From Candidatus Zambryskiibacteriota bacterium (GTDB lineage Bacteria > Patescibacteriota > Minisyncoccia > Phycocordibacterales > DATDWN01), in NCBI GenBank assembly GCA_023267045.1, contig JAHFOB010000004.1, forward strand, positions 1 to 56,342: 56,342 nt of DNA, written 5' to 3'. A program made the position numbers and the translations under genes. The notes below the pieces were generated by a model. The model searched no databases and was not told the DNA's origin. It was given only the letters and a program-made list of their open reading frames with translations. Shown here in pieces: positions 2,088 through 51,699 of this stretch. Every line of letters begins with the position of its first letter. Positions within the stretch are counted from its first letter, which is position 1.

Positions 2088-2255
2088 AAAACCCCCCCCC
2101 TCACAAGTTTTTGAAGACCGTCCACTCCGCCAGCGCTACGTTCACTTAATTCTCGACCCAAATCCGTCAAGAGCCCCTCGACAAGCTCGGGGTCATTGAC
2201 GGAACCGGCTTTGGGTCTGCGAGGTCTCCAAAAACTTGCGACTCAACGGGATTTT
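2088..2255. repeat. Long imperfect hairpin element, family 1a, copy A (AAAA...C9...GGGATTTT)
   Basis: It exactly fills the gap between the HIT stop (2082-2084) and the pgk stop (2254-2256). Its reverse complement matches 21384-21553, with the first 64 nt identical. Arm pairs include caagtttttgaagacc/ggtctccaaaaacttg and ccaaatccgtcaa/ttgacgg..tttgg. Confidence 0.85.
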
Positions 2256-3399
2256 ATTTTTCTAACGCCTGTATACCTGGCAATGTTTCATTGACAAGAT
2301 AATCCATCATCGCGCCACCACCGGTAGAAATAAAGCTGAATTTGTGATTAAGGTTTAGTTTATTTATTGAAGCGATTGTGTCTCCCCCGCCGACAATACT
2401 TTCTGCGCCGTTTTTTGTAGTTTGTTCTGCAATGATTTCAGCAAGCTGTTCAGTCTTGTCCTGAAAACCAATTTCGTAGTTTCCAAGTGGTCCATTCCAA
2501 ACAATTGTTTTTGCATCTTTCAAAATATCTTTTAGTTCATCGATGGTTTTAGGACCAGCATCTGCTATGTAGTCATCTTTTGAAACTTCGTCTAATGTTT
2601 TAAATTCTGTCTTACCATTTTCTTTTTTGACTGTTACATCAACAAAAGTTTTGAGCTTTGGATTTTCTAATATATCTTTTGAAATCTCCCCTTCTGAAAT
2701 AAGTGATACTCCAACTTCAAAACCTCGAGCTTTGAAAATATCGTTGGCCAAAGCACCAGCAACAAACACGACATCTGCCTTATCCAAATATTTTTTGATA
2801 AGTGGAAGTTTGGTTTGAAATTTCGATCCACCCAAAATAAAAACGAAAGGGTGAACTGGTTTGAATGCTCTGGAAAGATGTTCTATCTCCTGTCGCAAAA
2901 GTAAGCCACCATAATGCGGAATAAATTCTGGCACCCCGACAATCGAGGCGTGTTTTCTGTGCGAGACACTGAAAGCATCGTTTACATATATATCAGCCAT
3001 ACCAGATAGCTGTTTTGCAAAGACCGGATCATTTTCTTTTTCTCCAGGATTTATACGAAGATTTTCAAAAAGCAAAACCCCTTTATTCTGAAGTTTTAAA
3101 ACTTTTTCTACTGCCTCTGACGTAAAGTATGTTGAACAAAAATCTAACGGAAAATATCCCTTGAGATAATCGAAAACGGGAAGAAGTGTGGTTGTCTCCC
3201 CATTATTATCTTCAATATGAGCAACGATAATAGTTTGCGCTCCCTTGTGACGCAAAAAATCAACCGTCTCGACTATTCTCTCTAGTCTGTATGTATCACC
3301 TACTTCCCCGTCTACAATAGGAACATTCAAATCAAGACGAAGCAGAACTCGTTTACCTTCCAAATCTTGTTTATCTAATTCGTCTAAGTAGTGAACCAT
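2254..3399 (-). CDS. pgk: Phosphoglycerate kinase
   Basis: 381-aa ORF with typical PGK blocks: RLDLNVP, AHIEDNNGE.., FLLENLRINPGEKEND-like, STGGGAMMDYL. Confidence 0.95.
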   Translation of the reverse strand: MVHYLDELDKQDLEGKRVLLRLDLNVPIVDGEVGDTYRLERIVETVDFLRHKGAQTIIVAHIEDNNGETTTLLPVFDYLKGYFPLDFCSTYFTSEAVEKVLKLQNKGVLLFENLRINPGEKENDPVFAKQLSGMADIYVNDAFSVSHRKHASIVGVPEFIPHYGGLLLRQEIEHLSRAFKPVHPFVFILGGSKFQTKLPLIKKYLDKADVVFVAGALANDIFKARGFEVGVSLISEGEISKDILENPKLKTFVDVTVKKENGKTEFKTLDEVSKDDYIADAGPKTIDELKDILKDAKTIVWNGPLGNYEIGFQDKTEQLAEIIAEQTTKNGAESIVGGGDTIASINKLNLNHKFSFISTGGGAMMDYLVNETLPGIQALEK

Positions 3400-3460: not shown

Positions 3461-3500
3461 AAAAGTCCCCTTGTAGGCTCGTCCTACAAGGGTCCTTTTT
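3461..3500 (-). terminator. Hairpin terminator downstream of the NYN gene
   Basis: cccttgtagg(3468-3477)/cctacaaggg(3483-3492) form a 10-bp stem, flanked by an A-run and a T-run. Confidence 0.6.
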
Positions 3501-3975
3501 ATTTTAAACCTATCTTAAGCTTCAAATCATTCATAAAGGCAATATTTTTCTTTGCAAATTTCTTAAGAAGTGCCGAATATTTATTTCTATTTGGAACTAA
3601 TACTGTTTGAAGTTTATGTTGCTCAAACAAATACTGTACTAAACAATAAAAATCACCGTCGCCAGTTACTATTATAGCTTTATCAAAATTTTGGAATTGT
3701 ATCATTGTATGCAAAACCATTTCTGCATCAACATTTCCTTTAACAGTTCCATCTTTGTAGGTCAATACAGGTTTAAATATACAAATGAATCCTGCTTTTT
3801 GTAATTTTATATAGACTCCATTATTTCCTTCAATATATCCTATAAAAAGGTAGGCTGTACTAACTCCATAATGTTCTTTCAAATAAACTCTAAATCTCTC
3901 CCAATCAACACCCCAACCTTGAGATTTTATTGATAAATAAACATTTTGGCTATCTATAAAAGCAAAATTATTCAT
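3499..3975 (-). CDS. NYN-domain (LabA-like) protein, paralog 1
   Basis: 158 aa with N-terminal FIDSQNVY and the TGDGDF motif (IIVTGDGDFYCLV). The start codon is 2 nt after the tpiA stop. Confidence 0.8.
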   Translation of the reverse strand: MNNFAFIDSQNVYLSIKSQGWGVDWERFRVYLKEHYGVSTAYLFIGYIEGNNGVYIKLQKAGFICIFKPVLTYKDGTVKGNVDAEMVLHTMIQFQNFDKAIIVTGDGDFYCLVQYLFEQHKLQTVLVPNRNKYSALLKKFAKKNIAFMNDLKLKIGLK

Positions 3976-10973: not shown

Positions 10974-11606
10974 TTAGTTCTTGATGCGAACGACGAGGAA
11001 CCGAAAGTGACCGAGCCAGACGTCATCAAACCGGTACAGATACAAGCCCCGCCCGGAAAAGTACCCGCCGAGGATCGGAACATGACGCTCCCAAAGCAGA
11101 AAGCAGGATGAACCGAGAGCGACGATGGGAAACTGCCTCTGAAGCTCGGGGTTTTTGGCTCCGAAAGCCAGAAGCTCCCATATCGTCGCTGGTCGGAATC
11201 CTTGCTTCTTCATGTTCGCCAGAGCAGAGTCTGAAGAGATGCTCCCGAAGTGCAGAAGCTCGGCTTCCACTGCTTGAGTGGCCTGCTGAACTCCAGCAAA
11301 CAGAGTAGGCTTCAGGAATTTCTTCTCGGTGATGTTATCAGACACACAGTCGTACTTACCGAGCGCGATCGTCTCCGACAAGCTCATGGTGTAATCCACG
11401 ATGAATCGGAAGACCATCGTGACGAGACCGAGAAGCTTGCGGAACTCTTCCCTTGTCGGGATCGTCCCGTGAACGATTGCCTCGGCGATGTCCGCGAGAA
11501 TGCCCTTGCCGAGGAGGTCGTTCTGAACCTGTTCCGAGCTGAGACCTTTTTCATCAAGAGTCTCAATCACTCGAACGAACTGACGCGGGGTAACAGAGGT
11601 GCTCAT
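10974..11606 (-). CDS. GC-rich hypothetical protein, distant paralog of the DGR target protein
   Basis: 210 aa with SD aaggag upstream. G/C-ending codons contrast with the neighbouring genes. The C-terminal PILGG...DDVWLGHFRFLVVR resembles the target's PFLLGA..DDGQWL...GFAFVVSQ. The promoter is identical to that of the DGR target gene. Confidence 0.6.
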   Translation of the reverse strand: MSTSVTPRQFVRVIETLDEKGLSSEQVQNDLLGKGILADIAEAIVHGTIPTREEFRKLLGLVTMVFRFIVDYTMSLSETIALGKYDCVSDNITEKKFLKPTLFAGVQQATQAVEAELLHFGSISSDSALANMKKQGFRPATIWELLAFGAKNPELQRQFPIVALGSSCFLLWERHVPILGGYFSGRGLYLYRFDDVWLGHFRFLVVRIKN

Positions 11607-11691
11607 GGCATTCTCCTTTTCCGTTCTGCATTTGCAGGCGGATTTGGTGCGACAGAATTGTCGCTAACCAGTCAAAGAACCTTACCACGGC

Positions 11692-11721
11692 ATTATACCA
11701 CCTATGATAGGTAGCTGTCAA
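11692..11721 (-). promoter_or_regulatory. Consensus sigma70 promoter TTGACA-18 nt-TATAAT
   Basis: The rc reads gcTTGACAgctacctatcataggtggTATAAT. The 32-nt block 11692-11723 is identical to 20099-20130. Confidence 0.7.
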
Positions 11722-11821
11722 GCATTTTGTAAATCTCAAAATATGCCTAAAAATAAAGAGTTTTGGAACTATTTTTATTTATCTATACTAGATTTATGAA
11801 TATTCTGCTAAAATGTAGTTT

Positions 11822-12307
11822 ATGTATAAAGTTAACATATATGTGGATGGGAATAACTTATATCGCAGTGCCAAAGAATTAGGATTTGAAATTGATTATA
11901 AAAAATTCCGTGGTTGGTTAAGACAGAAATACAAAACAACTAATGTATATTTATTTATAGGATTAGTACCAGAGAGAGTAAAGTTTTACCAGTATCTACA
12001 AGAATCTGGTTTTATTTTAATATTCAAACAAACTGTTTCAGTAAGTGGAACTATAAAAGGAAATTGCGATGCTGAACTTGTTTTGAAAACTACTTCTGAT
12101 TTTTATACTAAAGCTTTTGACAGATGTATTTTGATAACTGGAGATGGTGATTTCGGATGTTTAGTAGAATTTTTGGAAAATAATTCAGCTTTGAACTGTG
12201 TTTTGGCCCCAGATGAAAATAAGTGTTCAATATTATTAAAAAACAAAAATATTGAGATTACATTTATGAATGAACACTATCATAAATTCTCAAAAAGATT
12301 AGCTTAA
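11822..12307 (+). CDS. NYN-domain protein, paralog 2
   Basis: 161 aa with IYVDGNNLY and ILITGDGDFGCLV. It is collinear with the 3499-3975 product. Confidence 0.8.
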   Translation: MYKVNIYVDGNNLYRSAKELGFEIDYKKFRGWLRQKYKTTNVYLFIGLVPERVKFYQYLQESGFILIFKQTVSVSGTIKGNCDAELVLKTTSDFYTKAFDRCILITGDGDFGCLVEFLENNSALNCVLAPDENKCSILLKNKNIEITFMNEHYHKFSKRLA

Positions 12308-14550: not shown

Positions 14551-15702
14551 ATGATAGATCTAAAAGTAGTGAGCTCTGTATTAGCTCAACTAGAGGAAGA
14601 GCGTGGCATACCTCGAGAGAAAATTCTTGAGGCTATTGAGCTTGCCCTAGCTACTGCCTATAAAAAAGAGTATGGAAAGAAAGGACAGATTGTTCGAGCA
14701 AAATTTGATATGAATACTGGAAAATCTGAAATGTTCCAAGTAAAAATCGTCGTTGATGAAAGCACAGTTTTCATGGATGAGGATGAATTGTTAGAAAACG
14801 AAAGTGAACCTATCGTAGAAGGAGTTCCGGAAAAAGAACTATATAACTCTGAAAAACATATTTTGCTCTCCGATGCTCGTCGTATAAAAAAAGATGTAAA
14901 GCTCGGTGAAGAAATGATATTTCCCCTTGAAGGTCAGGAGGACTACAGTCGTATTGCCGCTCAAACAGCAAAACAGGTTATCATGCAGAAAATTCGTGAA
15001 GCAGAAAAAGTTTCTATCATGGCTCAATATGGACAAAGAGAGGGTGAAATAGTTACTGGAACTGTCCAAAGAATGGAGCGAGGAAATATTTTTGTTGATC
15101 TGGGAAGAGCCCCCGGCATACTGCCATACGAAGAACAAATTCCTGGAGAGAGATTTGGCCAAGGTGAGAGACTTCGATCATATCTATACAGAGTAGAGGA
15201 ATCAGGAAAAGGTGTCTTCCTACGACTTTCTCGTTCACATCCAAAGTTTTTGGAAAAACTTTTTGAAGTTGAAACGCCAGAAATTGCAAACGGAACTGTT
15301 GTCGTAAAAGCCGTTGCTCGTGAAGCCGGTAGCCGAACAAAAATCGCTGTCGCCTCAAAGGACTCTCACATCGACCCAGTTGGTTCAATGGTGGGTCAAC
15401 GTGGAGTGCGAGTTTCTACTGTTATGTCAGAATTGGGTGGAGAAAAAATAGATATTATTGAATGGTCTGAAAATCCAAAGAAGTTTATTGAGGATGCTCT
15501 CTCTCCTGCTAAAACAATCGAAGTTACAATAAATGAAGCGGAAAAACAAGCCACTGTCTTGGTTTCTGAAGATCAACAGTCACTTGCTATAGGAAAAGGT
15601 GGTCAAAACGTGCGACTTGCTGCAAAACTAACTGGTTGGAAAATAGATATTCAGTCTACAAATCCTAGAAAAGAAATTGCAGAAGAAACTCCTACTGAAT
15701 AA
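14551..15702 (+). CDS. nusA: Transcription termination/antitermination factor NusA
   Basis: 383 aa with an N-terminal NusA domain, S1 and two KH regions (GxxGxxV, IGKGGQNVRLA). Confidence 0.95.
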   Translation: MIDLKVVSSVLAQLEEERGIPREKILEAIELALATAYKKEYGKKGQIVRAKFDMNTGKSEMFQVKIVVDESTVFMDEDELLENESEPIVEGVPEKELYNSEKHILLSDARRIKKDVKLGEEMIFPLEGQEDYSRIAAQTAKQVIMQKIREAEKVSIMAQYGQREGEIVTGTVQRMERGNIFVDLGRAPGILPYEEQIPGERFGQGERLRSYLYRVEESGKGVFLRLSRSHPKFLEKLFEVETPEIANGTVVVKAVAREAGSRTKIAVASKDSHIDPVGSMVGQRGVRVSTVMSELGGEKIDIIEWSENPKKFIEDALSPAKTIEVTINEAEKQATVLVSEDQQSLAIGKGGQNVRLAAKLTGWKIDIQSTNPRKEIAEETPTE

Positions 15703-15823
15703 AACTTCTTTCTCCTCATATCTTTTTTGGAAACAGAATAAATTCTTGCTAGAATTTTTCTTCGCGCTCGTCTCTACACGGACTCCGCGATGTTCCAAAA
15801 AAGTCATGAGTCAACGAAGTTTT
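15701..15823. repeat. Long hairpin element, family 1b, copy F
   Basis: It starts at the nusA stop. The outer arms are aaacttctttctcctcatatctttttt / aaaaaagtcatgagtcaacgaagttt. The conserved core gaataaattcttgctagaatttttcttcgcgctcgtctctacacggactccgcgat is shared with 21247-21369 and 41957-42081. Confidence 0.8.
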
Positions 15824-15861
15824 ATAGATGTGCTATAGTTATAAAAAATAATAATCACAAT

Positions 15862-17180: not shown

Positions 17181-17459
17181 ATGGAACAAAATAAATCATC
17201 TATAGGTTCTATCATCGGAACAATAATCATAATTTCAATTATTATTCTTGGTGGTTTGTATTTCTGGGGTAAAAGAGTTGAGGAATCTAAAATAAAACAG
17301 GATTTAGTAAACAGTAGCACTTCTACAACAACTGGAGACAATGAAGCGGCGTCGATAAGAAGCACAAGCCAATCTGATGATCTAGATTCTATTAACGCAG
17401 ATCTAAATGCAACAAATCTAGACAACCTCGGAGCGGAGATGAATACAACCACACCTTAA
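17181..17459 (+). CDS. Small N-terminally anchored membrane protein
   Basis: 92 aa with one TM segment (IGSIIGTIIIISIIILGGLYFW) and a Ser/Thr/Asp-rich tail. Confidence 0.55.
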   Translation: MEQNKSSIGSIIGTIIIISIIILGGLYFWGKRVEESKIKQDLVNSSTSTTTGDNEAASIRSTSQSDDLDSINADLNATNLDNLGAEMNTTTP

Positions 17460-18438
17460 TAGAATTTCTTAATTCATACGTATCCCCATGACTCAATAAT
17501 CCAAGACATGATTGGATTGTTTCTCTCGTTGGACTACCCCGTAACCCCTTCAGCATCCCCCTCTTCGCCACCGTCCGTAATACTCTATGATGCGGAAAGT
17601 GTACCCACCCAAGAAAATCTACACCAGAAGAGAGAGTTCTGATGTGGATTTTATTTGGATGAAGTGTCAGATTTAATCTCTCTTTCAGATTTACTACAAT
17701 ATACTGTAGTAAATTATGTAACTCATGTTTGTTGTGTGAGAAGAAGACAAAATCATCTGCGTAACGGATGTAGTACTTTTGATGTAGTCTGTGTTTAACA
17801 TATTGATCAAACTGGTTCATGTAGATGTTCACTAGGAGTTGTGATGTCAGGTTGCCCAGAGGCAGGCCTTTCTTAATATACGATATATCGTATATTAGTG
17901 GAGATGAGGAAAAACTTGAGATGACTTGGTTCAATAGCCAGAGTGTGTCTTTGTCTAGTATGTGATATGTCAATATTTCTAGAAGTATTTTGTGGTCAAT
18001 AGAAGCAAAGAATTTCCTCACGTCACATTTTAGTATCCAACACTGTCGTGTGTTGTTCTTACTTACTTTCCTTCCAAAATCTTTGAATCTGTTGAGAGCT
18101 CTGTGAGTTCCCTTCCACTTTCTACATGAATACGAGTCGTGAATGAATTGAGTGTCGAAATATGGATAGAGTATCCTGTAGATAGCGTGATGGAGTAGTC
18201 TGTCTCTGACAGTAGCTTTATGGATGTTTCGTGGTTTAGGGTCGGAGATGTTGAAAGCTGTGTAGCCTCCGTGGGAGTAGGTTTTGGAAGTGAGGTCATT
18301 TTGAAGTGAAATGATATTATCCATCAAATTCATTTGAAATTCTTGTACATCTTTTTTATTTTTCTTTCCTTTTAGAAATTCTTTCCAAGCAAGAAGTAAA
18401 TTGTCGGTAGAAATGATAGTATTGTATGAAATATCCAT
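17392..18438 (-). CDS. DGR-type reverse transcriptase
   Basis: RT motifs include GLPLGNLTSQLLVNIYMN (the DGR-typical xGNLTSQ) and IRYADDFVFF. The likely start is ATG 18438 (MDISYNTIIS...). The 3' end overlaps the convergent ORF 17181-17459 by 68 nt. Confidence 0.9.
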   Translation of the reverse strand: MDISYNTIISTDNLLLAWKEFLKGKKNKKDVQEFQMNLMDNIISLQNDLTSKTYSHGGYTAFNISDPKPRNIHKATVRDRLLHHAIYRILYPYFDTQFIHDSYSCRKWKGTHRALNRFKDFGRKVSKNNTRQCWILKCDVRKFFASIDHKILLEILTYHILDKDTLWLLNQVISSFSSSPLIYDISYIKKGLPLGNLTSQLLVNIYMNQFDQYVKHRLHQKYYIRYADDFVFFSHNKHELHNLLQYIVVNLKERLNLTLHPNKIHIRTLSSGVDFLGWVHFPHHRVLRTVAKRGMLKGLRGSPTRETIQSCLGLLSHGDTYELRNSIKVWLYSSPLRGCLDLLHLDLR

Positions 18439-18496
18439 ATTAGTTAATATTAAAACACACAAATGACACCCTTGATGCCCCCCCCCCGCAAAACTG

Positions 18497-18859
18497 TTGC
18501 CTGTTTTGGAAATAATTAAATCAGCATATATTACATGGCAAAGTTATATAAACATAGCCCCAAAAACTTCACGCTATACGCTGGTAGAAACGATAGATAA
18601 ATACTTTATACAAACAATAGAGAGTATTTTGATCGCAAGTTTTTTGGAGAAACAAGAAAAACAACCTTTTGTTAAGAAAGCTATTATTTCCTTAGACACA
18701 TTAAAATTTCTTTTGTATATATTATGGGAGATAAAAGCATTAGAGAATAAAAAATATATAATCTTGTCAGAAGCACTGGCAAAAGCAGGACAACAACTCG
18801 GTGGTTGGCATGGACAGATCCAAAAAAATCAACAGAAACAAAACCCGCCTAAGTTTTGA
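18497..18859 (+). CDS. avd: Four-helix-bundle protein (23S rRNA IVS / Avd-like accessory variability determinant)
   Basis: 120 aa with the pattern ...PKTSRYTLVETIDKYF...LKFLLYILWEIKAL...AGQQLGGWHGQIQK typical of the Avd/S23-IVS family. It has a TTG start and lies on the strand opposite RT, TR and the target. Confidence 0.7.
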   Translation: MPVLEIIKSAYITWQSYINIAPKTSRYTLVETIDKYFIQTIESILIASFLEKQEKQPFVKKAIISLDTLKFLLYILWEIKALENKKYIILSEALAKAGQQLGGWHGQIQKNQQKQNPPKF

Positions 18860-18889
18860 TTACAAAATTTTGGCGGGAAATGAAGTGAT

Positions 18890-19017
18890 TTGCGAAACGA
18901 CAAACGCGAAACCGTTGTCTCTGTTCCACCTGTTGTCGAGATTGCCCCAGTACGTGTTCAGCCACTGACCGTCATCGTTACGGCTAGCACCGAGCAAGTT
19001 CGGATTGCCATCGGAAT
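18890..19017 (-). other. DGR template repeat (TR)
   Basis: 128 nt aligning without gaps to 19382-19509. It is rich in AAY codons in the minus sense (NSDGNPNLLGASRNDDGQWLNTYWGNLDNRWNRDNGFAFVVSQ). Confidence 0.88.
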
Positions 19018-19301
19018 TTGTATAAAGTGTTTTCCATACCACCACTCCTTAAATATTTTTTAGAGTTGAATTTTATTTCGCATCATAATGCGCTAACACA
19101 ATATACCAAGTATCTCCATTTTTTGACCCTTCGACGGACTCAGGGTCATCCTGAATTTTGTTGAAGGATGAAGTGTCTACGTAGATCCTCCGTACAAAAC
19201 CATGATCTTGCACGCTCTCAATCTACGGATACTGGATTCGGCAGAAAGAAACCGTGATCTCTTTCATACTCACCTACTACCGTAATTTATTATATGTAAA
19301 A

Positions 19302-19328
19302 CCGCCCACGATATCCAATCGTGGGCGG
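19302..19328 (-). other. GC-rich hairpin downstream of VR (terminator and/or DGR target-recognition hairpin)
   Basis: ccgcccacgat-atcca-atcgtgggcgg has an 11-bp stem and is followed by TTTT on the minus strand. Confidence 0.65.
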
Positions 19329-19369
19329 GGAAAAGGTCAAAGGATCGAAAAGATCACAGTGACTCAAAT

Positions 19370-19990
19370 CTAAGCGCTAACTTGCGAAACGACAAATGCG
19401 AAACCGTCGTCCCTGAACCACCCGAAGTCGAGACCGCCCCAGTCCGTGAACAGCCACTGACCGTCATCGTCACGGCTAGCACCGAGCAAGAACGGATAGC
19501 CATCGGAATCTTTGATCGGTTCGTGCATGGCAATGACCCACCACAGACCCATCGATTCGATCTCCTTGTCCGTGAACTTCTCACGGATGAGGCAGGCAAC
19601 TTCAGCGTTCGGCTTCGAGAGCTTGCGCTTGTTGGCCTCGGCGCGGATCTTCGAGGTGATGCGATTCTCGTCAGAGAAAAGCTCTCCTTTGAGGACCGCC
19701 ATCTCGTAAGTCACGCCGTTGGTCAGCTTGAAATCCGACGAACGGAGTACCGACTTGGCGTAACTGCTCAAACGGAATCCGAGCTTTTCCAGACGTCCGA
19801 TCCAGTCCTCGCCGGTCGTGCCGTCGCTCGTGATGGAAAAGTAGATCACTCCGTTCTTTTCGTGCCATGAGCGAGCAGGTTCGAAAACGATAGGCTCATT
19901 GCGCAGAAAGCGTCTTGCGCCATCCACACCACCGAGTTTGTCGAAAACCGCTTCAACGCTAACGTCTTCGACGTAGAGGTTGTACTTCAT
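19370..19990 (-). CDS. DGR target protein (GC-rich, no signal peptide seen), VR at the C-terminus
   Basis: The likely start is ATG 19990 (MKYNLYVEDVSV...), preceded by ggaagg. The C-terminal 42 codons form the VR. Confidence 0.85.
   Translation of the reverse strand: MKYNLYVEDVSVEAVFDKLGGVDGARRFLRNEPIVFEPARSWHEKNGVIYFSITSDGTTGEDWIGRLEKLGFRLSSYAKSVLRSSDFKLTNGVTYEMAVLKGELFSDENRITSKIRAEANKRKLSKPNAEVACLIREKFTDKEIESMGLWWVIAMHEPIKDSDGYPFLLGASRDDDGQWLFTDWGGLDFGWFRDDGFAFVVSQVSA
19382..19509 (-). other. DGR variable repeat (VR)
   Basis: There are 17 mismatches to the TR, and 15 of them fall at TR adenines (coding sense). Confidence 0.88.
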
Positions 19991-20098
19991 GTTCTTATCC
20001 TTCCGACCGCTGGTCGGCATTTTTCTTCTACCCGTTGAGCAGAAGGCCACGGAATGTGGCTATGTTTCGCAAGTAGTTACAAAGAGCCTTACTCGACA

Positions 20099-20128
20099 AT
20101 TATACCACCTATGATAGGTAGCTGTCAA
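20099..20128 (-). promoter_or_regulatory. Consensus sigma70 promoter of the DGR target gene
   Basis: The 32-nt block is identical to 11692-11723 (TTGACA-18-TATAAT). Confidence 0.7.
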
Positions 20129-20180
20129 GCTAATTTGTGAACTTGTTAAAATAGAGCCAATAATATAGACTTTATGAATT

Positions 20181-21248
20181 GTGAAAAAACACTATAAAGA
20201 CATCAAGCTCAATTCCCTTCCAGAGAGAGAATTAGAGATTATTGGAAGTATTACTGCTGAGAAAATGGCCGTGATGCGAGAGAAAGCTCTGGCTAAAATA
20301 AAAGCCGAATTTGAAGCTCCAGGTTTTCGTAAAGGCAACGCACCCGATTCTATTATTATTCAAAAAGTCGGCGAGATGAGACTGTTAGAGGAAGCAGCCG
20401 AGATGGCGCTCTCTGAAGAATATCCAAATATTTTAGATGAACATAAAATAGATGCAATCGGTAGACCAGAAATAAACGTCACAAAAATAGGTGTCGGAAG
20501 TGACATGGAATTTAAAATAAAAACGGCTCTGTATCCAGAAGTAAAACTTGCTGATTATAAAAAGATTGCCAAAAAAGAAAATAACAAAGAGAAAAAAGTT
20601 GAAAATGTAACCGAAAAAGAAGTGGACGATGTTATAAAAAATATTCAAGAAAACATTGCTCACCAAAAAGTGCACTCTGAGTCCGGAGCGCCTGACCACA
20701 TGCACAACCACAGAAAAATTACGGATGAGGATCTACCAGAGGTTAACGATGAATTTGCAAAAATGATAGGCGGGTTCAAAGACGTTGCCGACATGCGACA
20801 AAAAGTAAAAGAAAATATTAGCGCAGAGAAAGATCTGAAGGAAAAAGATTTGGGGAGAACAAAAATCCTTGAAGCTATCATGGAAACTTCTACAATAGAT
20901 TTACCGAAAATTCTTGTTGATGGAGAAACAGAGAAAATGTTAGCACAGTTCAAAGACGATATAAGTAGAAGTGGTATAGCATTTCCAGACTATTTGAAAC
21001 AGATAAAGAAAAGTGAAGATGATCTGAAAGTCGATTGGAAAGATACTGCGACAAAGAGAGCAAAATCACAGATTATTTTAAACACAATCGCAAAAGATGA
21101 GGGAATAGTTGCAAAAGAAGATGAAGTAAAAAAAGAAATGGAAAATATTTTATCTCAACATAAAGACGCAGATCGTTTCCGTGTCAGAATGTATGTGGAG
21201 ACTTTTTTAACTAACGAGTTAGTTTTTCAGTTTTTGGAGTCACAATAA
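20181..21248 (+). CDS. tig: Trigger factor (short form)
   Basis: N-terminal ribosome-binding signature APGFRKGNAP. It lies in a tig-clpP neighbourhood and has a GTG start. Confidence 0.85.
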   Translation: MKKHYKDIKLNSLPERELEIIGSITAEKMAVMREKALAKIKAEFEAPGFRKGNAPDSIIIQKVGEMRLLEEAAEMALSEEYPNILDEHKIDAIGRPEINVTKIGVGSDMEFKIKTALYPEVKLADYKKIAKKENNKEKKVENVTEKEVDDVIKNIQENIAHQKVHSESGAPDHMHNHRKITDEDLPEVNDEFAKMIGGFKDVADMRQKVKENISAEKDLKEKDLGRTKILEAIMETSTIDLPKILVDGETEKMLAQFKDDISRSGIAFPDYLKQIKKSEDDLKVDWKDTATKRAKSQIILNTIAKDEGIVAKEDEVKKEMENILSQHKDADRFRVRMYVETFLTNELVFQFLESQ

Positions 21249-21369
21249 AATCTCTCACTCGTCACAACTTTTTCCAGTAACAGAATAATTTTCTGCTGAA
21301 AATTTTCTTTCTGCTCATGCTTCACGCATTCCGCAGATACTAGAAAAAGTTGTGACTCGACGAGATTTT
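21247..21369. repeat. Long hairpin element, family 1b, copy G
   Basis: The arms are aaaatctctcactcgtcacaactttttc / gaaaaagttgtgactcgacgagatttt. The core is homologous to copies F and E. Confidence 0.8.
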
Positions 21370-21383
21370 GTTAGTGCTAATAT

Positions 21384-21553
21384 AAAATCCCGTTGAGTCG
21401 CAAGTTTTTGGAGACCTCGCAGACCCAAAGCCGGTTCCGTCAATGACTCTGAGTGAAACGAAGAGCTCTTGACGGATTTGGGTCGAGAACAAAGTGAACG
21501 TAGCGCAGGCGGAGTGAACGGTCTTCAAAAACTTGCGAGGAGAAAGGGATTTT
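21384..21553. repeat. Long hairpin element, family 1a, copy B (inverted relative to copy A)
   Basis: It matches the rc of 2088-2255 except for the apical ~18 nt and a few arm positions. It ends at the rsmE stop codon. Confidence 0.85.
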
Positions 21554-22253
21554 ATATTAATAGTAAACTAGAAACTGCTATTGCTGCTGTTTCAGCACGG
21601 AGAACATTGGGACCAAGAGAAACGCTGGAAATATTTTTGGAAGAAAATTTTTGGATTTCTATATCACTCCAACCACCTTCTGGACCGACAAAAACCACTA
21701 ATTCTTTTGGTTTTTTGTCGTTAAAAGTTTTCTCTAGTGTTTCCCCTTCAAAATTCAAACAAATAACATTATCTGGTAATAGATCGCTTTCCAAAAGATC
21801 GTCGAGTGGAGTAATCTGATGAATAACTGGCACATCTCCCCTGCCAGACTGCTCCGAAGCTTCTGTAGCAATTTTTTCTAACCGTTCCATATTTAGATTT
21901 TTCTTTTCGCTTCTTTCACACAAAACTGGAATGATGTGAGAAACACCAATTTCGACTGCTTTTTGTACGGCAAGTTCGAAATTATCTTTTTTTATAAGAG
22001 CAAGGCAAAGCCAGAGATTTATTTTTGGTTTCATTCTTTCGTTCATTTTTTCTATTACACTGACCGTCGCACCAAGGTTTCGCAAAGATGTAATCATCAC
22101 AAGAAAATCATGTCCGTTGCCATCAAATAAAATAACTTGACTGCCGACGTTATAACGAAAAACACTTCGCCACTGATGTATCAGTTCTCGATCGGTGACA
22201 TCAAAGGTCTTGCCAGAAATAGGGGTTGTTATATAAAACCTGTGTAATCTCAT
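21552..22253 (-). CDS. rsmE: 16S rRNA (uracil1498-N3)-methyltransferase RsmE
   Basis: MRLHRFYI... start, with GPEGGWS near the C-terminus. Confidence 0.85.
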   Translation of the reverse strand: MRLHRFYITTPISGKTFDVTDRELIHQWRSVFRYNVGSQVILFDGNGHDFLVMITSLRNLGATVSVIEKMNERMKPKINLWLCLALIKKDNFELAVQKAVEIGVSHIIPVLCERSEKKNLNMERLEKIATEASEQSGRGDVPVIHQITPLDDLLESDLLPDNVICLNFEGETLEKTFNDKKPKELVVFVGPEGGWSDIEIQKFSSKNISSVSLGPNVLRAETAAIAVSSLLLI

Positions 22254-29280: not shown

Positions 29281-29292
29281 AACACTTTCTTG

Positions 29293-29323
29293 CCCCGTAG
29301 TGAGCTATGCTCTACTACCAGGG
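29293..29323. repeat. Family 2 palindromic element (31-nt short form)
   Basis: ccccgtagtgagctatgctctactaccaggg. Confidence 0.8.
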
Positions 29324-35338: not shown

Positions 35339-36259
35339 TTAATTTTTATTGTGAAATCGCTTATGGATATCGCGGAGGTGTTTGTCAGTCACATGTGTAT
35401 AAATCTGCGTTGTGATTATGCTTGAGTGACCGAGCAGAGCTTGAACGGAACGAATATCAGCACCGTTTGAAAGTAAATCTGTAGCAAAAAGATGTCGCAT
35501 TGTGTGCGGAGTAACTTTTTTTGAAATGCCAGCTTTAACAGCATATTGTTTTACTATTCTTTCGATAGTTCTTTTTGTTAGATGACCGACTTCTTCTTTT
35601 TTGACTTCGTTTCCTGTGTGAACAAATAGAGCATCACTCATATCTTTGCGGGCAGATAAATAATTTCTTAAATGTTTTTTTGCTTCTTCAGAAAGAAAAA
35701 CTACGCGAACTTTGCCTCCTTTTCCTCGAATAGAAAATTCGTCAGATCTCAAATCTAAATCTCGAGTCAGAGAACAAAGCTCGGAGACACGAAGACCAGT
35801 TGAAAACAAAAGTTCTAGAATTGCTCTATCACGAAGAGATTTCAAGTCGGTGCCTTTGGGAGACTCCAGTAATCTTTTTAATTCAGTTTGAGTTATAAGA
35901 TCGAGAGATCTTTCATTTACTTTGGCTAACTCTATTCTTTCAGCTGGTAAAGTTTTTATTTCTTGTCGGGCAAGATATTTCAGAAAAGCTCGCAAAGCTA
36001 TCAAATAATAGTTCTGTGTTTTTTTTGAAAGTGTTTCACTTTTGTCTGTTTTATTGTTTCCTGTAAGTTTGCGGTTGAGCCAAAGTCGAAACTGACGAAT
36101 GGTCTCGGCATTAACATCAGATGGATTGTCTTGTTTTAAAAATTCTAAAAAAACAGAAAGATAGTGGTCATAGTTTTCAACAGTTTTGAGAGAGCGACCA
36201 CGTTCTATTTCAATATATTCTAGAAATTGAGTTTTGAGTTCCTTAAGTGACACCATCAA
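35339..36259 (-). CDS. Tyrosine site-specific recombinase, XerC/XerD-like
   Basis: An N-terminal SAM-like core-binding domain, plus the catalytic contexts RVSEL, HTMRHLFAT, LLGHSSIITTQIYTHV. Confidence 0.88.
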   Translation of the reverse strand: MMVSLKELKTQFLEYIEIERGRSLKTVENYDHYLSVFLEFLKQDNPSDVNAETIRQFRLWLNRKLTGNNKTDKSETLSKKTQNYYLIALRAFLKYLARQEIKTLPAERIELAKVNERSLDLITQTELKRLLESPKGTDLKSLRDRAILELLFSTGLRVSELCSLTRDLDLRSDEFSIRGKGGKVRVVFLSEEAKKHLRNYLSARKDMSDALFVHTGNEVKKEEVGHLTKRTIERIVKQYAVKAGISKKVTPHTMRHLFATDLLSNGADIRSVQALLGHSSIITTQIYTHVTDKHLRDIHKRFHNKN

Positions 36260-37232: not shown

Positions 37233-37239
37233 GAACCAC

Positions 37240-37441
37240 AAAATCTCGTTGAGTCATATTTTCGCAAAATCTCTTTCTCCCTGTATCTCTCGAAGAGACC
37301 GTTCACTCCGCCAGCGCTTCGTTTACTTAATTCTCGACCTTGATTTGTCAATTTAACCCTTCACTTCGTTCAGGATCAATTGACAAAACCATGCTCAAGG
37401 TCTGCGAGGTCTCTTCTCGAGACACAGCTCGACGAGATTTT
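37240..37441. repeat. Long hairpin element, family 1a, copy C (with an extra partial left arm)
   Basis: It shares gaccgttcactccgccagcgcttcgtttacttaattctcgacc and tctgcgaggtctc with copy A. The outer ends are aaaatctc...gagatttt. Confidence 0.8.
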
Positions 37442-37537
37442 GCTACATTATCTTTTTACTTTATCATTTAGTATAATTAGAAAAGGTAGATTTTTTATAA
37501 ATTGAATTTCTTAATATTTAAATAATTTTTATATAAT

Positions 37538-38095
37538 ATGAGTGTAATTAAACACAAAAATCAAAGGGTTGGGATCTTTATTGATACCCAAAACTTGTAT
37601 CATTGCGCCAAAAATATTTATGGCGCAAAAGTAAATTTCGGCCAAGTAGTCAAAGATGGTTTGGCGGGAAGATCGCTCACCAGAGCTGTGGCCTATGTCA
37701 CTACAACAGAATCAGGGGAGGAAAAAAACTTCTTTGAAGCTCTGGGAAAAATGGGAATCGAGACTAAAACTAAAAACCTCCAAATTTTCTCTGGAGGTGC
37801 AAAAAAGGCAAATTGGGATATAGATTTGGCGATTGATGCTATTAAACTTGCTCCGAAACTCGACGCTGTAATATTGGTCACAGGAGATGGAGACTTTGTA
37901 TCACTTGTTGAATATTTGCAAAATGTGGGGTGCCAAGTTGAAGTGATTTGTTTTGGTAAAGCAACATCAGCAAAACTAATAGAAGCCAGCGACGACTTTA
38001 TTGATCTAGATGAAAACCCACGAAAATATTTACTCGGCTTTAGGGGAGAGGGAAATCGTCGTGGACCAAGACCTGCCCAGAAAGAAGAGGAGTAA
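37538..38095 (+). CDS. NYN-domain / LabA-like protein, paralog 3
   Basis: VGIFIDTQNLY and ILVTGDGDFVSLV; 185 aa. Confidence 0.8.
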   Translation: MSVIKHKNQRVGIFIDTQNLYHCAKNIYGAKVNFGQVVKDGLAGRSLTRAVAYVTTTESGEEKNFFEALGKMGIETKTKNLQIFSGGAKKANWDIDLAIDAIKLAPKLDAVILVTGDGDFVSLVEYLQNVGCQVEVICFGKATSAKLIEASDDFIDLDENPRKYLLGFRGEGNRRGPRPAQKEEE

Positions 38096-38376: not shown

Positions 38377-38408
38377 TTAGCAAAACTTTGTTACAATTAG
38401 TCTAAATG

Positions 38409-38537
38409 CCCCGTAGTAGAAGTTGGCATTGCAAAGTGTACTTTGCTAGAAAACCAAATGCCAACTTCACTACAGGGCTTAGCCCTGTAGTGAGCTAGGC
38501 TCTACTACCACGGGCTATCCCGTAGTGAAAATGACAT
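38409..38537. repeat. Composite of family 2 palindromes: 69-nt long form, nested 32-nt short form, then the arm atcccgtagtgaaaatgacat
   Basis: 38409-38477 matches 51608-51676 with only 3 substitutions. 38483-38514 is a short form absent from the 51.6-kb copy. Confidence 0.85.
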
Positions 38538-39979: not shown

Positions 39980-41557
39980 ATGGCGGTTTCAAAAATATAT
40001 TCTGCACAGGCGACACTACTTAACGCTCAAATAATAGATATTGAGGTGGATCTCTCTAAAGGGCTCCACTCTTTTTCTATCGTAGGTCTAGCGGACAAAT
40101 CGGTTGATGAATCAAAAGATAGAGTGAGCGCGGCCATAAAAAATTCTGGTTGGAAATCGCCGAAAAATAAAAATCAGAAAGTGGTAGTCTCTCTCGCCCC
40201 AGCAGATGTCAAAAAAGAAGGACCATTGTTTGATTTACCAATAGCACTGGCTTATCTCATCGCTTCAGAAAATATTAAAGCTGAAACAGAAAAAAGATTA
40301 TTTATTGGAGAATTGTCACTCGACGGAAAACTCCGACCTATAAAAGGAGCCCTGCCTATCACTCAAAAAGCTAAAAAGGAAGGTTTTAGGGAAATATTTT
40401 TACCAAAGGAAAATGCAGGGGAGGCTTCTGTAATTTCTGGCATCAAGATTTATGGTGCTGAAAATTTGCTAGAAGTTGTGAACCATATAAACACAAAAGA
40501 GCTGAGTGGGGAAGAAAAAGAAAGTGGTGGGTTGGAGAAGAAAGAAATTCCTGTTTATATTAACAAAAAGAAAAAAATTAAAAATCGAGAAGTTGAAATC
40601 GATTTTGCTGATATAAAAGGTCAGGAATCGGCAAAAAGGGGGTTGGAAATCGCCGCTGCTGGTGGACACAACATAATCATGTACGGACCACCAGGAACTG
40701 GAAAAACTATGCTGGCCAGAGCGTTTACACATCTACTCCCAGGACTTTCTTTTGACGATATGCTTGAAGTTACTTCTATTTATTCTATTGGGGGAATGCT
40801 TGGCACAGGACTTATTGAACATCCACCATTTCGCTCACCACATCACACAGCATCATACGTTTCACTGGTTGGTGGTGGAGCAAATTTAAAACCTGGGGAA
40901 ATTACTCTGGCTCACAAAGGTGTTTTATTTTTGGATGAATTTCCAGAGTTTGATAAAAAAGTTTTAGAGAGTTTGAGACAGCCACTGGAAGACAGGGAAG
41001 TGACAGTCTCACGAGCAAAAGGTTCTGTAAAATATCCAGCTCATTTTATTTTGGTTGCCACAATGAATCCGTGTCCGTGTGGAAATTATGGAGTGAAAGG
41101 TAAAGACTGTGTTTGTTCTGCACAAGCAATAGAAAGATATAAAAGAAAATTGTCTGGACCGATTGTTGATCGCATAGACTTGTGGGTAGAAGTTTCAAAA
41201 GTTGAACATGAGAAACTAACTGACGCTCGTGAAATGCATGAAGGGACGACCAAAATGAAACCTCGTGTGGAAAACGCTCGAAAAATACAAGAAAAAAGAT
41301 ATGCAAAAGCAAAACTGAAAATAAAAACGAATGCAGAGTTGACAGCAAAAGATTTAGTCAAACAAATAAAACTTTCGGACAAAGTCAAAGAAACTTTGAA
41401 TCGCTCGGCAAAACAGCTCGACCTTTCGGCACGTTCATATCACCGAATCATCAAACTAGCACGAACAATTGCCGATATGGAAGGAAGTGAGGATATTTCC
41501 GAAAACCATATTTTAGAAGCACTGCAATACAGACCTAAGAAGTACCAGTCACTGTAA
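39980..41557 (+). CDS. YifB/ComM-family Mg-chelatase-like AAA+ ATPase
   Basis: A Lon-like N-terminal domain, Walker A GPPGTGKTM, VLFLDEFPEF and a C-terminal ChlI region. Confidence 0.9.
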   Translation: MAVSKIYSAQATLLNAQIIDIEVDLSKGLHSFSIVGLADKSVDESKDRVSAAIKNSGWKSPKNKNQKVVVSLAPADVKKEGPLFDLPIALAYLIASENIKAETEKRLFIGELSLDGKLRPIKGALPITQKAKKEGFREIFLPKENAGEASVISGIKIYGAENLLEVVNHINTKELSGEEKESGGLEKKEIPVYINKKKKIKNREVEIDFADIKGQESAKRGLEIAAAGGHNIIMYGPPGTGKTMLARAFTHLLPGLSFDDMLEVTSIYSIGGMLGTGLIEHPPFRSPHHTASYVSLVGGGANLKPGEITLAHKGVLFLDEFPEFDKKVLESLRQPLEDREVTVSRAKGSVKYPAHFILVATMNPCPCGNYGVKGKDCVCSAQAIERYKRKLSGPIVDRIDLWVEVSKVEHEKLTDAREMHEGTTKMKPRVENARKIQEKRYAKAKLKIKTNAELTAKDLVKQIKLSDKVKETLNRSAKQLDLSARSYHRIIKLARTIADMEGSEDISENHILEALQYRPKKYQSL

Positions 41558-41729
41558 AAAATCTCTTTCTCACCACAACCTTTTCAGAGACACAAACTTT
41601 TCCAGCCAAAAGTTTGTTCTAGTCCTCGGTCGCAACTTGTCAATCTAACTCGCTTTGCTCGTCGTTTGACAAGTCCATGCTTGCGACCTGCGGGTGCTCT
41701 GAAAAGGTTTTGGTTCGATGAGATTTTTT
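41556..41729. repeat. Long hairpin element, family 1a-like, copy D
   Basis: The outer arms are aaaaaatctctttctcaccacaaccttttcagag / ctctgaaaaggttttggttcgatgagatttttt. The inner ttgtcaat...ttgacaag..ccatgct..ctgcg is homologous to copy C. Confidence 0.8.
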
Positions 41730-41736
41730 ACAAAAT

Positions 41737-41895
41737 CTATTTTGCTCTAATATAAATAGCCAATTCGTAAAAAATTACTACCACCCCAAAACCAAAAAGT
41801 AAATTTCCAAAGACACCTCCTGACGTGATACCGTCATTAACTGCAATCAAAGCTAATAATGTTGTAACCAAAATATCTGAATGTTTATTTTTCAT
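41737..41895 (-). CDS. 52-aa membrane peptide candidate (below the track cutoff)
   Basis: Own translation: MKNKHSDILVTTLLALIAVNDGITSGGVFGNLLFGFGVVVIFYELAIYIRAK. Confidence 0.35.
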   Translation of the reverse strand: MKNKHSDILVTTLLALIAVNDGITSGGVFGNLLFGFGVVVIFYELAIYIRAK

Positions 41896-41956
41896 ACTTT
41901 AATTGTATCATCTTTGGAAGATTTGCAATATAGACTGAAGAAGTGCCAGAGTTTTT

Positions 41957-42081
41957 AAAAAATCTCTTTCTCACCAATACTTTTCTGTCGCCGGAATAAT
42001 TTCGTGCTCGAAATTTTCCTCGCACTCGCCTCTACACGGGCTCCGTGATGCGCCATAAAAGTATTGGTTCGACGAGATTTT
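41957..42081. repeat. Long hairpin element, family 1b, copy E
   Basis: The arms are aaaaatctctttctcaccaatacttttc / aaaagtattggttcgacgagatttt. The core is ggaataatttcgtgctcgaaattttcctcgcactcgcctctacacgggctccgtgatgcg. Confidence 0.8.
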
Positions 42082-42229
42082 GTAAAAGAAAAGCTGTTTG
42101 AAACTAGCTCAGAGGATTTTTGTCTGAGTTTGAGGCGCGAATGAGTATCGTGACCAAGGTGTAGTAAACCTACTCCGCGGGAACGAACGGAATGAGCAAC
42201 GAAAAAATCGGACAAAAAGACCGCAAATA

Positions 42230-51603: not shown

Positions 51604-51607
51604 AATG

Positions 51608-51699
51608 CCCCGTAGTAGAAGTTGGCATTGCAAAGAGTACTTTGCAAGAAAACAAAATGCCAACTTCACTACAGGGCTATCCCGTAGTGAAAATGACAT
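51608..51699. repeat. Family 2 long palindrome plus the arm atcccgtagtgaaaatgacat (paralogous to 38409-38537)
   Basis: It starts 4 nt after the stop codon at 51601-51603. Confidence 0.85.

Follow-up and report, generated by a model that had tools for sequence, protein, structure and literature searches.

REP/BIME elements and REPINs are mobilised by RAYT (Y1/HUH) transposases, and elements of the IS200/IS605 type transpose as single strands. ERIC (also IRU), an imperfect palindrome of ~127 bp found in enterobacteria, is classed as a MITE (PMC3184786). BOX of Streptococcus pneumoniae has the structure boxA-boxB(n)-boxC, and the consensus sequences of BOX, RUP and SPRITE have been described (PMC3049150). 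The bcr1 repeat of the Bacillus cereus group (~155 bp) is transcribed (PMC3184786). The elements investigated here share the generic features of bacterial MITEs with respect to size and copy number (120-204 nt, below the limit of ~400 bp, no ORF, many dispersed copies), form (inverted terminal arms around a core, giving a long stem-loop) and mobility (presence or absence at orthologous sites) (PMC3184786). Three of them, called 1b copies, are located in the window, that is, the whole stretch of 56,342 nucleotides that was analysed, from a contig of a Candidatus Zambryskiibacteriota bacterium. These three sequences belong to a previously undescribed repeat family of CPR bacteria of the Parcubacteria/Minisyncoccia type, whose members are small, structured, interspersed, non-coding and non-autonomous.

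A modular repeat family in Parcubacteria

Each of the three 1b copies is ~126 nt long and consists of a ~30-bp outer stem around a core of two hairpins. They lie where a sequence-only reading of the window had placed them and share the core it described: its motif matches these three sites in the window and no other, with one mismatch in the second copy and a chance expectation of ~0.01. The ends fit better about 3 nt further to the right than first drawn, and Table 1 gives the revised positions. The mean column identity in the alignment of the three copies is 79%. All three adopt the same fold on either strand, with z between -5.7 and -8.9 for RNA and between -6.9 and -9.3 under DNA parameters. 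The second copy was found with the same sequence in a second sample; exact-protein look-ups for strain polymorphism recovered DNA of the same strain only, with identical intergenic DNA.

Table 1. Superfamily members in the window, the parts of the first 1b copy and the lone tyrosine recombinase gene
Feature	Position	Strand	Context or structure	Covariance model score (bits)
1b copy, sublineage A	15701-15826	+	starts inside nusA stop codon; ppa promoter region downstream	135
left arm of sublineage A copy	15701-15732
hairpin 1 of sublineage A copy	15735-15761
hairpin 2 of sublineage A copy	15762-15790
right arm of sublineage A copy	15793-15823
1b copy, sublineage B	21247-21372	+	starts inside stop codon of trigger factor gene (tig)	121.6
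1b copy, sublineage C	41957-42084	+	follows a duplicated piece of the comM 3' end (41913-41958)	144
long-type member	2096-2260	-	same arms, hairpin 2 of ~20 bp; between convergent HIT and pgk genes
long-type member	21381-21555	-	back-to-back with the sublineage B copy
solo right-arm fragment	37238-37256	-	directly after rpsO stop codon
long-type member	37264-37446	+	downstream of rpsO
long-type member	41555-41731	+	directly after comM stop codon	48.6
XerC/D-like recombinase gene	35339-36259

We scanned 185,579 genomes, one per species, with the core pattern GAATAA-N5-TGCT-N5-TTTTC-N14-22-CACG-N3-TCCG. Beyond the window this returned 57 exact matches in 54 loci (L001-L054), all of them in 18 MAGs of Patescibacteria, with a maximum of at least 14 copies in one genome. 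The host assemblies are labelled as Parcubacteria, Minisyncoccia and Zambryskibacteria, together with TPA bins that are labelled 'Saccharibacteria' and carry genes matching Parcubacteria. The element is also contained in two 'Nitrospira' bins. The locus from one of these (L004) shows ~77-80% DNA identity to a locus from a Parcubacteria bin of the same sample (L014), which suggests that the 'Nitrospira' bins probably contain Parcubacteria contigs.

A covariance model was built from 57 full copies, as the sequence-only reading had proposed. On the window its strong matches are the three 1b copies only, whereas on 447 kb of sequence (the window plus the loci) it finds 84 copies at E < 1e-6, several of them per 8 kb. 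About 25 of the 84 fail the core pattern. These copies reveal that the motifs which had seemed invariant are strongly but not absolutely conserved, and they contribute additional compensatory pairs, for example GAATAT...ATTTC. Viral contigs, phage records and plasmids gave no match to the element. The recommended Rfam search matched no family: scanning the whole window with Rfam 15 at gathering scores returned four tRNAs only, and a permissive scan around the first copy gave nothing below E = 2.9. Literature searches for such an element in CPR bacteria or Parcubacteria returned no relevant description.

The 1b copies form the short class within a modular superfamily whose members have common arms. 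The same arms enclose different interiors, which range from a 79-nt form with a plain loop (L010:7451) through the 120-nt 1b form to longer forms of 154-204 nt with hairpin 2 enlarged to ~20 bp. The window contains eight members or fragments of the superfamily (~1.1 kb, or ~1.9% of its bases), regularly dispersed at about one per 7 kb; the long-type member that follows comM and the nearby sublineage C copy have arm boxes in common. The copies exchange modules by recombination, because all four combinations of the multi-substitution boxes of hairpin 1 and hairpin 2 occur in one genome (L001, L030, L040 and L009), and because one copy (L002) is a chimera of two sublineages whose arms no longer pair.

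Covariation and the form under constraint

In the 57-copy alignment, drawn from 18 other genomes and the window, 20 of the 28 consensus pairs show double changes. A standard pair is formed in 91.8% of the cells, against 71.5% after shuffling (500 shuffles, none of which gave as high a value) and 41-55% for slid partners; the corresponding covariation scores are 0.515, 0.156 and 0.126 or less. The argument that covariation reveals a constraint on a folded structure is thus borne out far beyond chance, and it is therefore the folded single-stranded form of the element that is constrained. As a record of shape preservation the family is unusually clean, with dozens of independent compensatory changes.

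The outer arms are long, imperfect and inverted (AAAATCTCTTWCTC...TCGACGAGATTTT), and they enclose a three-way junction with two hairpins. They contain a conserved asymmetric internal loop, CTTTCTC opposite TCGACG, and the element ends in an A-tract/stem/T-tract arrangement (T4). Conservation is concentrated in the loops (TGCT and YTTCAC), the junction residues and a bulged T in hairpin 1, whereas four variable boxes (mid-arm, distal hairpin 1, and the base and tip of hairpin 2) are constrained only to pair. Watson-Crick pairs make up 99.7% of hairpin 1, in which five pairs covary and not a single G.U occurs, and the variants that had been quoted for it from the three window copies (aaattCT/AGaattt, attttC/Gaaaat and aatttCG/CGaaatt) are exact. 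The base of hairpin 2 covaries as well, but for the third copy the register backed by the 57-copy alignment is CAC...GTG and not the CGCA..TGCG that had been proposed.

The outer arms were also said to differ between copies while staying complementary within each. The pairing is real, but its origin is mixed. In most copies the palindrome runs 3-20 nt past the common ends into copy-specific flanking sequence. In the orthologues L010 and L038 a 12-nt arm segment has been swapped on both sides, with a trace of the former arm still visible beyond it; L032 has lost its internal loop, its left arm now matching the complement of its right arm exactly. These three observations imply that part of the complementarity did not arise by stepwise compensatory substitution. 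Intrastrand template switching in a replication hairpin, known as quasipalindrome correction and well established as a mutational mechanism, can produce such arm changes, whereas stepwise compensatory substitution cannot.

The arm mismatches indicate which strand is concerned. Counted on the + strand, distinct A.C events (27) outnumber G.U events (10; p = 0.008, the 37 events being only partly independent). The A.C:G.U ratio is 12:1 where the + version lies in the neighbouring 3' UTR and 18:1 where the - version does. Since the asymmetry does not change with the strand that the 3' UTR contains, it is a property of the element's own bottom strand and not of the neighbouring mRNA. The orientation of the copies relative to genes is also random: in tandem gene contexts 14 are co-oriented and 19 anti-oriented (p = 0.49). 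Together, these two results argue against a fold that is selected in host mRNA and point instead to a DNA hairpin. The arm changes described above, the recombination between copies, the absence of G.U from hairpin 1 and the conserved loop and junction sequences of copies transcribed in either sense point the same way. The sequence-only reading had left the choice between RNA and cruciform DNA open, and of these two a hairpin or cruciform in DNA fits better.

Three pairs of loci, which are probable orthologues, allow the element to be compared with its surroundings, the flanking comparison being based on coding DNA. In L010/L038 the element is ~98% identical over the core and inner arms (two differences in ~95 nt) and 82% identical over 136 nt, with flanks at 76-81%; both core differences belong to one compensatory change from C-G to T-A in hairpin 1. 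In L039/L041 the element is 92% identical and the flanking DNA 78%, and the arms carry uncompensated changes. The values for L004/L014 are 96% and 80%. A purely selfish insert that decays neutrally would not be better conserved than its flanks. The conservation of the core reflects either gene conversion among near-identical copies or a function of the core at the level of the host. Gene conversion agrees with the recombination seen among copies and with how far the conserved tract reaches.

Gain, loss and competing explanations

The copies are always intergenic, most of them only a few bases away from a gene 3' end, and often overlap a stop codon. Their median distance to gene 3' ends is 15 nt, as compared with 37 nt to gene starts (p = 0.04, with crude gene calls), and 10 convergent contexts stand against 8 divergent ones. 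In relatives that lack the element, nusA and ppa are separated by 6-40 nt. The closest relative (84% NusA identity) does have a copy after nusA; however, this copy is of a different sublineage, and its position is shifted downstream by 31 nt. Of 80 nusA relatives, 78 lack a copy within 2.5 kb. Three further pairs of filled and empty sites are L012/L013, L003/L027 and L046/L014.

At some sites the element replaces a plain terminator, and at others it precedes one. Replacement is seen at a site between RNase H and comEC-like genes and at the HIT/pgk site, where the occupant is a plain 34-nt bidirectional terminator in one genome, a long-type member in the window and a 1b copy together with a foreign GC-rich ORF in a third genome. 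In the filled sites L012 and L046 the element belongs to the 3' UTR: the stop codon precedes it, and a normal GC-rich terminator follows. Among 13 same-site pairs between genomes, five are in opposite orientation and at least three are of different type. The same intergenic sites have thus been occupied repeatedly by independent insertions. The family has multiplied and turns over, with copies being gained, lost and re-inserted in either orientation. The contrast that the sequence-only reading drew between a folded structure and a simple repeat therefore does not hold: the elements are an interspersed repeat family prone to gain and loss, of which 1b is one size class.

The flanks and neighbourhoods of the copies were searched for traces of the means of transposition. 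No direct repeat that could represent a target-site duplication was found in 68 flank pairs; the flanks are inverted-complementary, and the empty sites are too diverged for alignment at base level. The flank tables reveal no conserved target motif, only an A-rich left side, a T-rich right side and the copy-specific extension of the palindrome. Neither the window nor ~450 kb of the loci contains an autonomous parent (the same ends around an ORF, up to 3.5 kb), and no transposase or cognate IS was detected in the window or in L001-L054. The recurrent neighbours are housekeeping genes only (UvrA, FBA, LepA, RNase H, SodA and transporters), none of which suggests a mobilising enzyme. The genes of the window are likewise housekeeping genes, with a DGR and the lone XerC/D-like recombinase; no spatial or structural link was found between the element and the neighbouring DGR, NYN genes or TIGR arrays, and GC skew was uninformative as to orientation relative to the direction of replication.

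The explanation that we favor, with moderate confidence, is that of a structured repeat similar to ERIC, BOX and the MITEs that functions in the form of a DNA hairpin; it is probably moved as single-stranded DNA, and its co-transcription is incidental. The constrained form would be a hairpin that the element's own bottom strand adopts as single-stranded DNA, and this hairpin may be used for mobilisation in trans by a putative enzyme in the manner of the HUH/Y1 transposases or of REPINs. Formation of the hairpin during replication would drive template switching, which in turn would keep the arms complementary, and extend them, without selection. Because the elements end in an A-tract, a stem and a T-tract, co-transcribed copies probably form bidirectional terminator-like or RNA-end-protecting hairpins, and this side effect would make insertions tolerable or mildly useful. 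Maintenance of the fold in part by template switching, and use of a DNA hairpin in propagation, are more likely than a cis-acting RNA; a hairpin-recognising mobilising enzyme and a terminator-like side effect are what we infer from these patterns.

A possible but distinctly less probable explanation is that the elements are more than parasitic MITEs, namely a DNA (or RNA) structure with a three-way junction that is conserved in situ across Parcubacteria. Such a structure may be a domesticated signal of the chromosome or of the transcript in these minimal genomes, or it may spread by an undescribed process that depends on the hairpin, creates no duplication and renews and lengthens the arms by template switching.

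Also unlikely, to a slightly greater degree, is a cis-acting RNA selected by the host, in which a hairpin at the end of an mRNA terminates transcription bidirectionally or protects or processes the 3' end, with recombination accounting for the spread. The proximity of the copies to gene 3' ends, the tracts at their termini and the in situ conservation of the core in orthologous pairs would agree with such a role, as would the ordinary bidirectional terminators found in relatives at the HIT/pgk and RNase H/comEC-like sites and the lack of any other convincing terminator for nusA and tig in the window. With regard to intrinsic terminators, the stem measures at least 30 bp and is AT-rich, with A-tract/stem/T4 ends, and a consensus scan makes no call. 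However, orientation bias is absent, yet the loop and junction sequences are conserved though the element is transcribed in either sense. In mRNAs that contain the + version, the arms show A.C mismatches (12) and hardly any G.U (1). The normal terminators downstream of the element in L012 and L046, the lack of a terminator-like enrichment between convergent genes, and the window insertion between nusA and ppa, which are so closely spaced in relatives, also count against this explanation.

REP/BIME elements bind gyrase and IHF, and the copies could similarly be host DNA sites, that is, cruciforms or lagging-strand hairpins bound by a host protein (a topoisomerase, nucleoid protein, primase/primosome or recombinase) and kept for a chromosome function. 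We regard this as improbable. Recognition of the DNA itself would account for conserved loops in copies that lie in either orientation; both strands fold stably as DNA in the same way, orthologous copies retain the core in situ, and the copies in the window are regularly dispersed. Against this stand the rapid turnover with independent re-insertion in either orientation and the many nusA relatives without a nearby copy, so that even members of the group can lack the element; in addition, no candidate binding protein was identified.

It is very unlikely that the copies are independently transcribed small RNAs, guide-like or regulatory, whose specificity resides in the variable stem boxes. A three-way junction with conserved unpaired nucleotides and hypervariable paired boxes, the strand-intrinsic mismatch asymmetry and a promoter-like TTAGTGGTGAWWT motif beside some copies would be in keeping with this idea. 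However, the motif accompanies only ~13 copies and is on the wrong side and strand to drive the wobble-tolerant strand, and there is no consistent promoter. Furthermore, the variable boxes are paired internally and thus unavailable as guides, no effector gene recurs near the copies, and Rfam has no match. Integron attC-like recombination sites following gene cassettes are effectively refuted: the copies are imperfect palindromes of attC-like length directly after stop codons, with conserved bulges and a strand-specific asymmetry, but their ends lack the R''/R' core sites (RYYYAAC / GTTRRRY), they follow housekeeping genes (nusA, tig and comM) in both orientations and without arrays, and there is no IntI gene, the XerC/D-like gene being the sole tyrosine recombinase in the window. 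A three-way junction also brings to mind hammerhead-like ribozymes, an idea that is rejected because their conserved core motifs are absent on inspection and Rfam has no match.

Relation to described repeats

CPR/Patescibacteria genomes are tiny and usually called streamlined. Here ~2% of a 56-kb stretch consists of structured hairpin repeats of one superfamily, common to MAGs from at least 18 assemblies. The family provides a clean natural data set on structural selection versus the mutational maintenance of palindromes, in which the compensatory changes are accompanied by four-gamete evidence for recombination and by the replacement of whole arm segments. The element has a practical use as a marker for assembly breaks and for binning, as the two 'Nitrospira' bins illustrate, and it may point to an enzyme that mobilises or binds hairpin DNA in organisms that are not yet culturable alone.

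Membership by sequence in ERIC, BOX, RUP or SPRITE can be rejected: the host is a member of the Patescibacteria, comparison by eye with consensus fragments of these families reveals no similarity, and the likeness is one of architecture only. In architecture and behavior, nevertheless, the elements are of the same kind as ERIC, BOX, RUP, bcr1 and the bacterial MITEs.

Like ERIC, they have nearly the same length, and the whole element is an imperfect palindrome; they occupy intergenic, co-transcribed positions near gene ends in either orientation, have size variants created by internal insertions and show unusually high conservation between species. Unlike ERIC, with which they share neither sequence nor host phylum, they have a conserved three-way junction core inside variable arms, and the TA flanks and target duplications of ERIC-type copies (PMC3184786) are not seen here. 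The likeness to BOX lies in modularity, in that conserved terminal modules pair while the interior can be exchanged or expanded; both also have a tightly folded RNA or DNA structure, intergenic co-transcribed copies and lone modules, represented here by the solo right arm at 37238-37256. However, the sequences are unrelated, and BOX has target-site duplications and a candidate mobilising IS, ISSpn2 (PMC3049150), neither of which was found for the present family.

SPRITE, the pneumococcal element that resembles a Rho-independent terminator (PMC3049150), also has AAAA...TTTT ends and a stem longer than that of normal terminators; it likewise lies near the 3' ends of CDSs, and a target-site duplication could not be established. 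However, SPRITE is a loosely folded 18-bp duplex with a U-rich tract and is strongly enriched between convergent genes (PMC3049150), whereas the Parcubacteria elements form a tight three-way junction and have no convergent enrichment. In bcr1, too, compensatory changes keep a cruciform-like fold, and genomic locations are not conserved between relatives; bcr1 differs in its flanking 5-bp direct repeats (PMC3184786) and is unrelated in sequence and host.

With REP/REPIN and IS200/IS605 elements the family shares a hairpin as the apparent functional unit, flanks with no visible target duplication, and what may be strand-specific recognition of a folded single strand with bulged bases. Mosaic clusters of different repeat types are another feature in common with REP/REPIN. 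REPs are short, GC-rich sequences marked by a GTAG motif, whereas the elements described here are AT-rich, with a nested three-helix structure of 120 nt, and neither a RAYT nor a TnpA gene is present in the window or in the sequence of the loci. The lack of a visible target-site duplication, together with the strand-intrinsic asymmetry, is compatible with an element derived from REPIN/RAYT or IS200/IS605. What is new here is a sequence family specific to Parcubacteria; the general kind, similar to ERIC, BOX and the MITEs, is already known.

The comM duplication and other elements and genes of the window

The window contains a duplicated tract (41512-41583 and 41913-41984, 78% identity) that consists of the last 46 nt of comM and the initial 26 nt of an element arm, the arms being the outer-stem inverted repeats of the superfamily. 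The two elements that adjoin this duplication have arm boxes in common but differ in their interiors, one being of the long type, with an expanded second hairpin, and the other a copy of the roughly 126-nt repeat 1b; the stretch that separates them contains a 52-codon membrane-like ORF (see the table). Elsewhere in the window, the element at 2096-2260 carries a C10 homopolymer (2096-2105) in place of the polypyrimidine part of the arm, which could make this a slippage-prone tract. The 56 kb also harbor three genes for NYN-domain (PIN-like nuclease) proteins, at 3499-3975, 11822-12307, and 37538-38095, one of which is located directly downstream of the element at 37264-37446.

A diversity-generating retroelement and a promoter-bearing repeat

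A complete diversity-generating retroelement (DGR) occupies positions 17392-20050. Mismatches between its template and variable repeats are nearly confined to template adenines, and a GC-rich hairpin is located a short distance downstream of the variable repeat. Two copies of a 51-nt repeat, which on the minus strand contains a TG-extended promoter that matches TTGACA-N18-TATAAT perfectly, are found upstream of the ORF at 10974-11606 (minus strand) and of the DGR target ORF, respectively; these two ORFs may be paralogues.

Features of the DGR, the 51-nt repeat, and the comM region in the window
Feature	Position	Strand	Remark
DGR reverse transcriptase	17392-18462	-	
DGR Avd	18497-18859	+	
DGR template repeat	18890-19017		
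DGR variable repeat	19382-19509		within 3' end of ORF 19370-20050 (-)
GC-rich hairpin	19302-19328		
51-nt repeat, copy 1	11673-11723		
51-nt repeat, copy 2	20080-20130		
52-codon membrane-like ORF	~41740-41897	-	

Copies of 1b in other genomes

The 1b locus L049 has an insertion (274-1050) beside a 1b copy: an ORF, GC-rich and foreign in appearance, that spans about 180 codons and has a terminator of its own. It lies in the interval that separates pgk from HIT, a position at which the window and locus L010 are without such a gene. The Parcubacteria element also occurs on three contigs (L004, L012, and L019) of JBEBJM01, which is labelled Nitrospira sp. SF2_9. Locus L004 shares about 77-80% DNA identity with L014 from the Parcubacteria bin SF2_12 of the same sample, and the Nitrospira label of these contigs is probably wrong.

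A flank motif and other repeats

The motif TTAGTGGTGAWWT immediately follows the right end of about 13 copies of 1b in several genomes (e.g., L001:7145, L009:6716, L050:1982, and L044:4031, as well as 21373-21386 in the window). It is similar to the TG-extended -10 region that belongs to the window's strongest promoter, and it may be a component of the element itself, a promoter that faces outward, or a target. A second family of hairpin repeats in the window, unrelated to the 1b superfamily, is represented by a 76-nt pair (38404-38479 and 51603-51678) with 96% identity, and a 32-nt palindrome, GCCCCGTAGTGAGC...GCTCTACTACCNGGG, is present three times (29292-29323, 38482-38513, and 43924-43955). 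Loci L009 and L030 contain a further recurring repeat, GCACCCAAGGTCTGGCC...GGCCAGACCTTTGG. In the CAIOTC01 genome (L001, L032, and L040) a repeated hairpin, CTCACCYGGTGTC...CACCGGGTGTGAG, adjoins the 1b copies, an arrangement that forms BIME-like mosaics of mixed repeat types.
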